A stretch of DNA of 64,000 bases. Source: a virus. Positions within the stretch are counted from its first letter, which is position 1. Each line of letters begins with the position of its first letter. Location of the stretch: IMG/VR virus record IMGVR_UViG_3300027881_000007, positions 1 through 64,000 of that record. One strand, written 5' to 3'. The translations under genes were made by a program, and so were the position numbers. The notes under the pieces are model-generated. The model did no database searches, was not told the DNA's origin, and saw only the letters and a program-made list of their open reading frames with translations. Of this stretch, positions 26,393 to 27,334 are shown one piece after another.

Positions 26393-27334
26393 CTAAAAGT
26401 TTTTCCAGCGTTCAACCCATTCATAAATATCCACACACGTTCTCTTTTTAATATGTTCTCGTTGGGGGTTGCACTTAACACTAATCTCATCTAGCATGCC
26501 TTGCTTTACATGCTGATGACCCCTCGCTTTGTTCACTAGCCTCTGTGTAATCTCCCGACCACAGGGAAGATACATGGCTATGATTCGATTTCTCAACCAA
26601 TCATTGTAGTTCCAGTGATATCCCCTTTTCTCTGCATAGTGAAAAATTGCAGGTTTAGGGAATATATTCACGTTGTAACCCATCACCGCCAAACTATAGT
26701 TTATAAAGTTTTCTCCTCCTCCATAAATCCCCAACTCTTCTGGCCACATTTGAAGTTCGTCAACCATTATCTTTCTGCTCATCAACATACCACAGGTTGA
26801 CATACAGGGGACTTTGTAGGGCTTCCCATCCTCTGATCGCCTGTATCGACTAAAAGAGTAATGAAGTACGCCCTCCTCTAAGTTGAGTCTAGGTTTGTAA
26901 ATCAACTCCATACCCGGTCGCTCCAGCATGTACGAAATCGGGAGGTGAAGCGATCCGTGCAACTCTTCTTCGTTCTCCTTGTAATACATGAACATATCGA
27001 AAAGACAATCCCTACCAATAATACAGTGAGCATCAGAAAAGAATAAGTAGGGAGACTTCGAATGAATAATACCAAGGTTTTTAGCACACCAATGAGATAA
27101 CTTTTTATCATAATGCAACACCCTTAATTTTGGACCATGACCTCTTGCTACATTCTTTAAAAACTTATAGCCCTTATCTTGTTCTTTTCCACAAGAAGAG
27201 TCTGGTACCCAGTTATTGATTGCGATTATCTCATAATCAACTCGTCCTTCCAGTTCACACATTATATTCTGAACTGTAAAAACATTCTGAGGGTACTCAT
27301 TCACAAAAGGCATAATAATCGACAATTCAGGCAT
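26393..27334 (-). CDS. GT-A glycosyltransferase with polypeptide GalNAc-transferase (GT27)-like motifs
   Basis: LSIIMPFVNE, FSDAHC (DxH), YGGGEN and IFHY correspond to ppGalNAc-T FHNE, FLDSHC, WGGEN and VGHVF. Confidence 0.75.
   Translation of the reverse strand: MPELSIIMPFVNEYPQNVFTVQNIMCELEGRVDYEIIAINNWVPDSSCGKEQDKGYKFLKNVARGHGPKLRVLHYDKKLSHWCAKNLGIIHSKSPYLFFSDAHCIIGRDCLFDMFMYYKENEEELHGSLHLPISYMLERPGMELIYKPRLNLEEGVLHYSFSRYRRSEDGKPYKVPCMSTCGMLMSRKIMVDELQMWPEELGIYGGGENFINYSLAVMGYNVNIFPKPAIFHYAEKRGYHWNYNDWLRNRIIAMYLPCGREITQRLVNKARGHQHVKQGMLDEISVKCNPQREHIKKRTCVDIYEWVERWKNF

Follow-up and report, generated by a model that had tools for sequence, protein, structure and literature searches.

The window analysed here comprises 64,000 nucleotides (positions 1 to 64,000) of the 113-kb IMG/VR virus record IMGVR_UViG_3300027881_000007. 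CheckV estimates the record to be 36% complete, which points to a jumbo phage as its source; we refer to this uncultured virus as a jumbo myovirus. On the minus strand of the window lies a genuine open reading frame (ORF) with an ATG start that encodes a 313-residue protein resembling GT27, the family of the polypeptide GalNAc-transferases (ppGalNAc-transferases), which initiate mucin glycans in animals. Along the direction of transcription it is preceded by genes for a GT4-like glycosyltransferase (GT), a GT9-like GT, a small protein, a methyltransferase and a DUF4915-like protein, and it is followed, after 70 bp, by the first of a series of giant poly-Thr proteins (Table 1). These genes form a candidate glycosylation cassette together with its presumed acceptors.

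Table 1. Features of the window and the tailed major capsid genes of two relatives
Feature	Position	Strand	Basis or remarks
Tail sheath gene	1905-3887		Within window
Poly-Thr modular protein, 1520 aa	5773-10335	-	SPRY domain and PHROG 'virion structural protein' match
Poly-Thr modular protein, 2070 aa	10373-16585	-	SPRY and DUF1349 lectin-like domains; 22% Thr; tracts to ~100 aa
Poly-Thr modular protein, 1373 aa	16628-20749	-	LVIVD repeats
GNAT acetyltransferase, 326 aa	20817-21797	-	Pfam; conserved in close relatives L002-L004
Beta-keto-acid cleavage enzyme (BKACE)	21794-22663	-	Pfam, E 3e-77; conserved in close relatives L002-L004
Poly-Thr modular protein, 1195 aa	22735-26322	-	9 Thr/Ser runs; C-terminus ...ATTTTTTAPP; candidate acceptor
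GT27-like GT-A glycosyltransferase, 313 aa	26393-27334	-	Soluble; DxH, GGGEN and distal His; ORF, Pfam, alignment, profile, AF2
DUF4915/TIGR03032-like protein	27344-28270	-	Weak Pfam and NCBIfam matches below cut-offs; 9 bp upstream of GT27-like gene
Small S-adenosylmethionine-dependent methyltransferase	28267-28782	-	Pfam Methyltransf_11, E 3.5e-12
Small protein, 151 aa	28785-29240	-	ORF; no significant family; conserved only in close relatives; cluster membership uncertain
GT9-like (heptosyltransferase-fold) glycosyltransferase	29307-30107	-	Pfam PF01075, E 5e-7
GT4-like GT-B glycosyltransferase (c1)	30101-31615	-	Pfam Glycos_transf_1; homologues in 56 other loci
Tailed major capsid gene, G001	L198:15945-17264
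Tailed major capsid gene, G002	L201:150-1478

All of the motifs picked out in an earlier sequence-only reading of this locus are present, and in the order proposed: PFVNE (residues 9-13), FSDAHC (99-104), P176-C-M178, YGGGEN (204-209) and IFHY (230-233). Across an alignment of 41 homologues with about 50% identity (alignment A1), D101, H103, C104, G205, G206, G207, E208, N212, H232 and R237 are invariant. HMMER pairs DAHC with the DSHC of GT27 enzymes, GGGEN with WGGEN, and H232-x-x-x-K-R with VGH-x-F-R-K-R of Drosophila PGANT9. The invariant D101, H103 and H232 align to the DSH and VGH of PGANT9, in agreement with the proposal that the protein has the DxH motif and distal His of GT27. These three residues are predicted by homology to bind the metal ion.

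A search of 5.8 billion proteins recovered 555 homologues, mostly of 300-360 residues and about 50% identical to the phage protein. The sole Pfam match of the protein is PF00535 (Glycos_transf_2; E 3.6e-7, 30.7 bits against a cut-off of 23.3), a model that presumably also matches GT27 catalytic domains and hence would not separate GT2 from GT27. NCBIfam gives only a PgaC match below threshold, and a GtrB-like PHROG family matches weakly. When the profile made from A1 was searched against all PDB sequences, GT27 came first: PGANT9 heads the list (E 1e-7, residues 3-240), followed by Toxoplasma gondii GalNAc-T3 and then by GalNAc-T7, T10, T4, T12, T1 and T2, and eight of the top ten matches are GT27 enzymes. 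TarP, a staphylococcal prophage enzyme, appears in this search at 2.5e-7, matched over its nucleotide-binding half only and with DxD where the family has DxH.

Structural comparison was made with an AlphaFold2 (AF2) model of the protein built on A1 (pLDDT 95, pTM 0.93). The roughly 50 best Foldseek matches in the PDB are all GT27 (E ~1e-15, TM score 0.64-0.77). With VIA, an all-against-representatives search, mouse GalNAc-T1 (8v9q) reaches Z 26.6 over 286 residues at 2.9 Å and T. gondii GalNAc-T3 reaches Z 25.1, whereas other GT-A enzymes (WrtF, heparosan synthase, K4CP, SpsA and TarS/TarP) do not exceed Z 19.6 and align over 50-70 fewer residues. The GT-A catalytic domain is thus aligned with these two GT27 enzymes over 283-286 residues at Z 25-27, and D-x-H-C, (W/Y)GGEN and a distal His followed by K-R are aligned too; human T2, T4 and T12 and PGANT9 are other examples in GT27. 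Given the profile E-value of 1e-7, the Foldseek E-value of 1e-15 and the VIA Z-score of 26.6, the resemblance to GT27 is far beyond chance. The profile, Foldseek and VIA rankings together settle the choice between GT27 and GT2 by fold, which had been suggested as a check, in favour of GT27, with ordinary GT2 enzymes further away.

The phage protein differs from GT27 enzymes in its overall architecture. In the AF2 model strand β1 starts at residue 4 with no N-terminal extension, leaving no type II anchor or stem, and the chain stops after the helices of the catalytic domain without a C-terminal ricin B-type lectin domain; lengths across the family are almost always 300-360 residues. It is phage-encoded and predicted to be cytoplasmic, not Golgi-resident. 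PF02709 (Glyco_transf_7C), the model of the Gal/GalNAc-T motif (WGGENxE...), has no match on the phage record at E ≤ 10, although YGGGEN aligns to WGGEN; it is present in some neighbouring ESM-Atlas clusters, and it does not bear on membership either way. The GT60 polypeptide alpha-GlcNAc-transferases of protists combine a GT27-related catalytic domain with the absence of the C-terminal ricin-like domain (PMC8724618). By this description GT60 enzymes (Dictyostelium, Trypanosoma cruzi) have the same lectin-less architecture as the phage enzyme, and one member, Gnt1, which acts on Skp1, is cytoplasmic; GT60 enzymes are eukaryotic, whereas the phage enzyme is not. Because the phage enzyme has no ricin-type lectin, no anchor or stem and only 15-17% identity to GT27 enzymes, we place it outside strict GT27, in a separate phage family that is GT27-like and, in architecture, GT60-like. 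Its earlier description as ppGalNAc-transferase-like holds for its nearest solved relatives but not for its domain composition or family membership.

Thr makes up 14-22% of the four giant proteins that follow the GT27-like gene (1195, 1373, 2070 and 1520 residues; positions 5773-26322). Every one of them has 9-17 Thr/Ser runs, and the longest tract extends over about 100 residues. Dense Thr/Ser/Pro tracts are a further point of likeness to GT27 systems, and in the phage they are the presumed acceptors. The TTTLPPLPTTTT context quoted in the earlier reading is present in these proteins. The poly-Thr runs are linkers between SPRY, DUF1349 (lectin-like) and LVIVD modules, and the 1195-residue protein also has a C-terminal tract, so that most, but not all, of the tracts in the window are internal. 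Position and domains suggest that the giants are fibres. The peptides TTTTLPPLPTTTT and ...STTTTTA, the latter a tail peptide, are candidate acceptors. The earlier observation that the next gene opens about 20 kb of Thr/Pro-rich proteins is borne out by the four giants, but the series is interrupted by the BKACE and GNAT genes (20817-22663). This pair, inserted between the first and second giants, may relate to acyl modification.

Family loci were collected by pattern-plus-tblastn scans of 2.9 million IMG/VR viral contigs and of one genome for each of 185,579 prokaryotic species. We compared 61 non-redundant loci (GT below 90% identity) with 120 random IMG/VR loci picked with an arbitrary 14-mer, using a span of 10 kb on each side. 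A gene with a poly-Thr run lies within this span in 36 of the 61 family loci, always on the strand of the GT, and in 3 of the 120 random loci (Fisher p 4e-18, a value that overstates independence because the loci are related to one another). Genes with a C-terminal Ser/Thr tail number 24 near family loci and none in the control. Ten long contigs have no nearby tract; seven of them carry (ACN)6 runs elsewhere on the coding strand (a nucleotide pattern counted in any frame), against almost none for a reversed-pattern control. The co-occurrence with poly-Thr genes across phages that had been proposed as a check is therefore strong, and it extends to capsid proteins.

G001 and G002, two complete 88-89-kb genomes with terminal repeats, both carry the GT27-like gene. 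In both, the major capsid protein (Phage_cap_E, phrog_29) has a pure Ser/Thr tail of 16 residues at its C-terminus (...TTTTTTA). Near the capsid gene lie genes for two further Ser/Thr-tailed proteins, which are small (about 206-220 residues) and match no family. Several tail-region proteins contain 24-42% Thr, and one poly-Ser/Thr tail-region protein of G001 has a domain in common with the 1195-residue giant of the window. Pure Ser/Thr capsid tails in the 88-kb relatives are 16-60 residues long and end ...TTTTTA. Among 80 capsid homologues (L207-L286; 55-100% identity), 59 are tailed and 18 end cleanly without a tail. Six contigs belong to the capsid set as well as to the GT set, and all six are tailed. 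On the tailed contigs G008 and G009 the GT4-like gene is present and the contig ends at the expected position of the GT27-like gene. On three tail-less syntenic contigs (G005-G007) Thr runs are virtually lacking, and neither the GT27-like nor the GT4-like profile finds a match. These contigs are 37-43% complete, so that GT absence is firm mainly for G005, which extends 11 kb past the tape-measure gene, into the region that holds the cassette in G001. The presence of a tail and the presence of the GTs coincide in a single clade of capsids.

This pattern bears on whether the association simply reflects shared ancestry or habitat, with the GT having another role and the poly-Thr tracts being unglycosylated spacers, as is usual in these environmental phages. 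In favour of this explanation, phylogeny links the loci, their source metagenomes are similar, and the random control was not habitat-matched. However, the tract-GT association is found on at least four different genomic backbones, and it holds between the jumbo myovirus and the 88-kb phages, which have in common only the two GTs and one fibre domain (blastp, E < 1e-5); because these phages share so little, the association is more than the inheritance of a single lineage. Together with the joint presence or absence of tails and GTs in one capsid clade, these observations make an origin in shared ancestry or habitat very unlikely.

To describe the surroundings of the gene, ORFs of all loci were clustered and the clusters annotated with Pfam. 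The resulting late-gene module has a conserved order, in which tail or poly-Thr proteins are followed by the GT4-like gene (c1), a variable set and, last, the GT27-like gene. The variable set includes a second GT1/GT4, a GT2, a hexapeptide acetyltransferase, two or three methyltransferases, an epimerase/dehydratase, a GT9-like enzyme and a radical-SAM/SPASM protein; methyltransferases recur in the cassettes of other phages, and homologues of the window's GT9-like protein are found in six other loci. In our reading the cassette is horizontally mobile; it sits among the late structural genes. The window also has, upstream of its cassette (33202-39497, minus strand), genes for cupin, prohead-protease-like, enoyl-CoA-hydratase-like and radical-SAM proteins, which are unusual auxiliary genes to find inside a structural region. 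In about 20 related phages (for example L052:13978-16629 and L008:19386-20909) next after the cassette comes a DNA polymerase A fused to a uracil-DNA-glycosylase (UDG)-family domain and a 3'-5' exonuclease, and the same phages also have a MuF-like protein with an ADP-ribosyltransferase domain. A tRNA scan of the window found none, and in a promoter and terminator scan of positions 20500-35600 the number of sites was not above that in shuffled sequence.

Of the 53 loci with 8 kb or more of upstream sequence, 48 contain the GT4-like gene besides the GT27-like one, and this constancy raises the question of which enzyme acts first. Cytoplasmic protein O-glycosylation by bacterial GT-B enzymes is established: GtfA/GtfB (GT4) initiate on streptococcal serine-rich repeat adhesins, and Aah/TibC modify autotransporters. 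The tracts might thus be glycosylated with the GT27-like enzyme as an elongating enzyme and either the GT4-like partner, in the manner of GtfA/GtfB, or the GT9-like protein, in the manner of Aah/TibC, as initiator. The GT9-like protein matches the NCBIfam model for heptosyltransferase I (1.4e-8) and, weakly, that for Aah/TibC protein O-heptosyltransferases (7e-4), but its gene occurs in few loci. The AF2 model of the GT4-like protein (pLDDT 86) if anything leans the other way, being closest in VIA to the small-molecule and lipid GT4 enzymes MshA, BshA and PimA (Z 16-17.4), whereas GtfA (Z 12.2), SdgB and OGT all score about 12; its profile yields only weak BshA-type matches. The nearest relatives of the GT27-like protein, by contrast, are peptide-initiating enzymes, separated from the others by a gap of 6-7 Z units. 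Initiation by one of the partner enzymes is therefore unlikely in our judgement, and the GT27-like enzyme is the likely initiator on the strength of homology. The GT4-like protein of the window also has an additional N-terminal stretch of about 80 residues (low pLDDT, one predicted helix), which the homologues of about 420 residues in other phages lack.

The family is phage-borne and phage-specific. The census found 69 distinct loci in IMG/VR contigs and five among the 185,579 prokaryotic species, all five on contigs of metagenome-assembled genomes. The ESM-Atlas clusters nearest to the family are 90-97% viral, and a HMMER scan of 1.84 billion cluster representatives shows the family to be compact, with 125 clusters at E ≤ 1e-30. 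A tblastn search of GenBank phages (50,697 records) found no family member, the sole match being the N-terminal half of TarP (E 1e-3), and the BFVD viral structures contain no close relative, with a best match (TM score 0.69, 14% identity) weaker than those to GT27. The only named cellular match is a protein of Desulfatiglans anilini, which is 100% identical to a gene in a 37-kb IMG/VR provirus record. This provirus (L053/G020, L295-L296) is the only instance in a cultured organism. It has GT27-like, methyltransferase-like and GT4-like genes at one end, and two of its tail-region proteins end in (EE)TTTT repeats, while its capsid protein is tail-less. Elsewhere (L062, L028, L037, L044 and L060) two or three paralogous GT27-like copies lie side by side, an arrangement that recalls the isoform families of animal ppGalNAc-transferases.

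The recurrence of TarP in these searches raises a further alternative, namely that the cassette acts on a non-protein target and that the poly-Thr tracts are unrelated linkers. Such a target might be phage DNA or, by analogy with prophage TarP and Gtr serotype conversion, a polymer of the host envelope. TarP is the best match of the N-terminal half in a single-sequence PDB search (E 4e-4), and the weak GtrB-like PHROG match points the same way; yet the likeness to TarP is confined to the nucleotide-binding half, where TarP has DxD and not DxH, and no flippase, polymerase or polyprenyl-phosphate transferase was seen among the Pfam-annotated cassette genes of the window or of the other loci. A DNA target would fit the GT gene adjoining the DNA polymerase-UDG gene in about 20 loci, as well as a ThyA-family gene elsewhere on the jumbo phage record (G000, C1:107520-108383), which lies outside the window and about 80 kb from the cassette. 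DNA glycosylation is disfavoured, however, by four complete cassette-bearing genomes (74-89 kb) that lack homologues both of ThyA and of hydroxymethylases, enzymes needed to make glycosylatable bases. With the presence or absence of Ser/Thr tails tracking the cassette among closely related capsids, we consider a non-protein target to be quite unlikely.

We favour, with moderate confidence, the reading in which the cassette O-glycosylates the virion's own Ser/Thr tracts in the cytoplasm, a reading built on the observed fold, motifs, phage distribution, synteny and statistical co-occurrence. The proposal that the phage O-glycosylates its fibres to form a mucin-like coat is partly supported, by the proximity to GT27 and the strong co-occurrence with tracts; the giants are predicted fibres, and 'mucin-type' in its strict sense, GalNAc-alpha-Ser/Thr, is a hypothesis here. 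The mechanism, including its metal ligands, donor, acceptor, stereochemistry and order of enzymes, is modelled on homologous systems throughout. In the host cytoplasm, D101, H103 and H232 of the enzyme would coordinate Mn2+, through which a UDP-sugar would be bound. The sugar, probably an N-acetylhexosamine and with its configuration retained as in GT27, would be placed on Thr/Ser hydroxyls in extended Thr/Pro-rich tracts of virion proteins. In the jumbo phage it would go to the poly-Thr linkers that join the domains of the four giant lectin-domain proteins encoded directly downstream; in the 88-kb relatives, capsid and other virion proteins would receive it on their C-terminal Ser/Thr tails. 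Extension of the glycan may then fall to the GT4-like and GT9-like enzymes and its methylation to the methyltransferase, and the virion would be assembled with a glycan-covered surface.

Several points weigh against this reading. Poly-Thr can act as a plain flexible linker, and three of the ten long contigs that have no nearby tract have no pure (ACN)6 run anywhere else on the contig. The relatedness of the loci and the unmatched habitat of the control reduce what the Fisher p-values can carry, as the partial completeness of the tail-less contigs does for the capsid comparison. The identity to GT27 is low, the phage protein has no counterpart of the GT27 lectin domain or membrane anchor, and the constant GT4-like partner could be the true initiator.

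We offer more tentatively, as something a little short of an even chance, a broader proposal: that the GT27-like protein is a polypeptide O-glycosyltransferase in the full sense and initiates dense mucin-like glycans on virion poly-Thr in the bacterial cytoplasm. It would then be the first counterpart of GT27/GT60 from a virus of prokaryotes, and perhaps also related to them by descent, within a two-enzyme cassette that moves between unrelated phage lineages and provides many environmental phages with a glycan coat.

A full-text literature search found no paper on a GT27-like phage enzyme or on poly-Thr acceptors in phages. To our knowledge, glycosylation of phage virion proteins has been documented so far only in a few mycobacteriophages, with unrelated enzymes. 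According to the passages that relay Freeman et al. 2023 (PMC12619734, PMC12363180 and PMC11256854), the mycobacteriophages Che8, Corndog and Myrna encode GTs that modify the C-termini of their own capsid and tail-tube proteins. The Ser/Thr C-terminal tails on the capsid and adjacent small proteins of the GT-bearing relatives described here (G001, G002 and G008; 59 of 80 capsids) resemble that arrangement, whereas the family itself is GT27-like and glycosylation in our system is a prediction from genes. Che8 gp109 and gp110 were rejected as relatives of the family, with an hhalign probability of 0.05-0.4% against its profile. The locus in the window is the jumbo-phage version of the arrangement, with long internal poly-Thr linkers of giant lectin-domain proteins as presumed acceptors in place of short C-terminal tails. 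The serine-rich-repeat adhesin system of Gram-positive bacteria (GtfA/GtfB and accessory GTs) is similar in its cytoplasmic multi-enzyme O-glycosylation of long Ser/Thr repeats before export or assembly. It differs in that its initiator is a GT4 GT-B pair, and our GT4-like partner shows no particular resemblance to GtfA (Z 12.2, against 17.4 for other GT4 enzymes).

The tailed and tail-less natural variants of one capsid provide a ready comparative system. If the proposed function is correct, a compact soluble enzyme with a simple acceptor tag (...TTTTTA) might serve glyco-engineering in bacteria. It would also mean that mucin-type-like initiation chemistry exists outside eukaryotes, and that glycan-coated virions are common among environmental phages, jumbo phages included.

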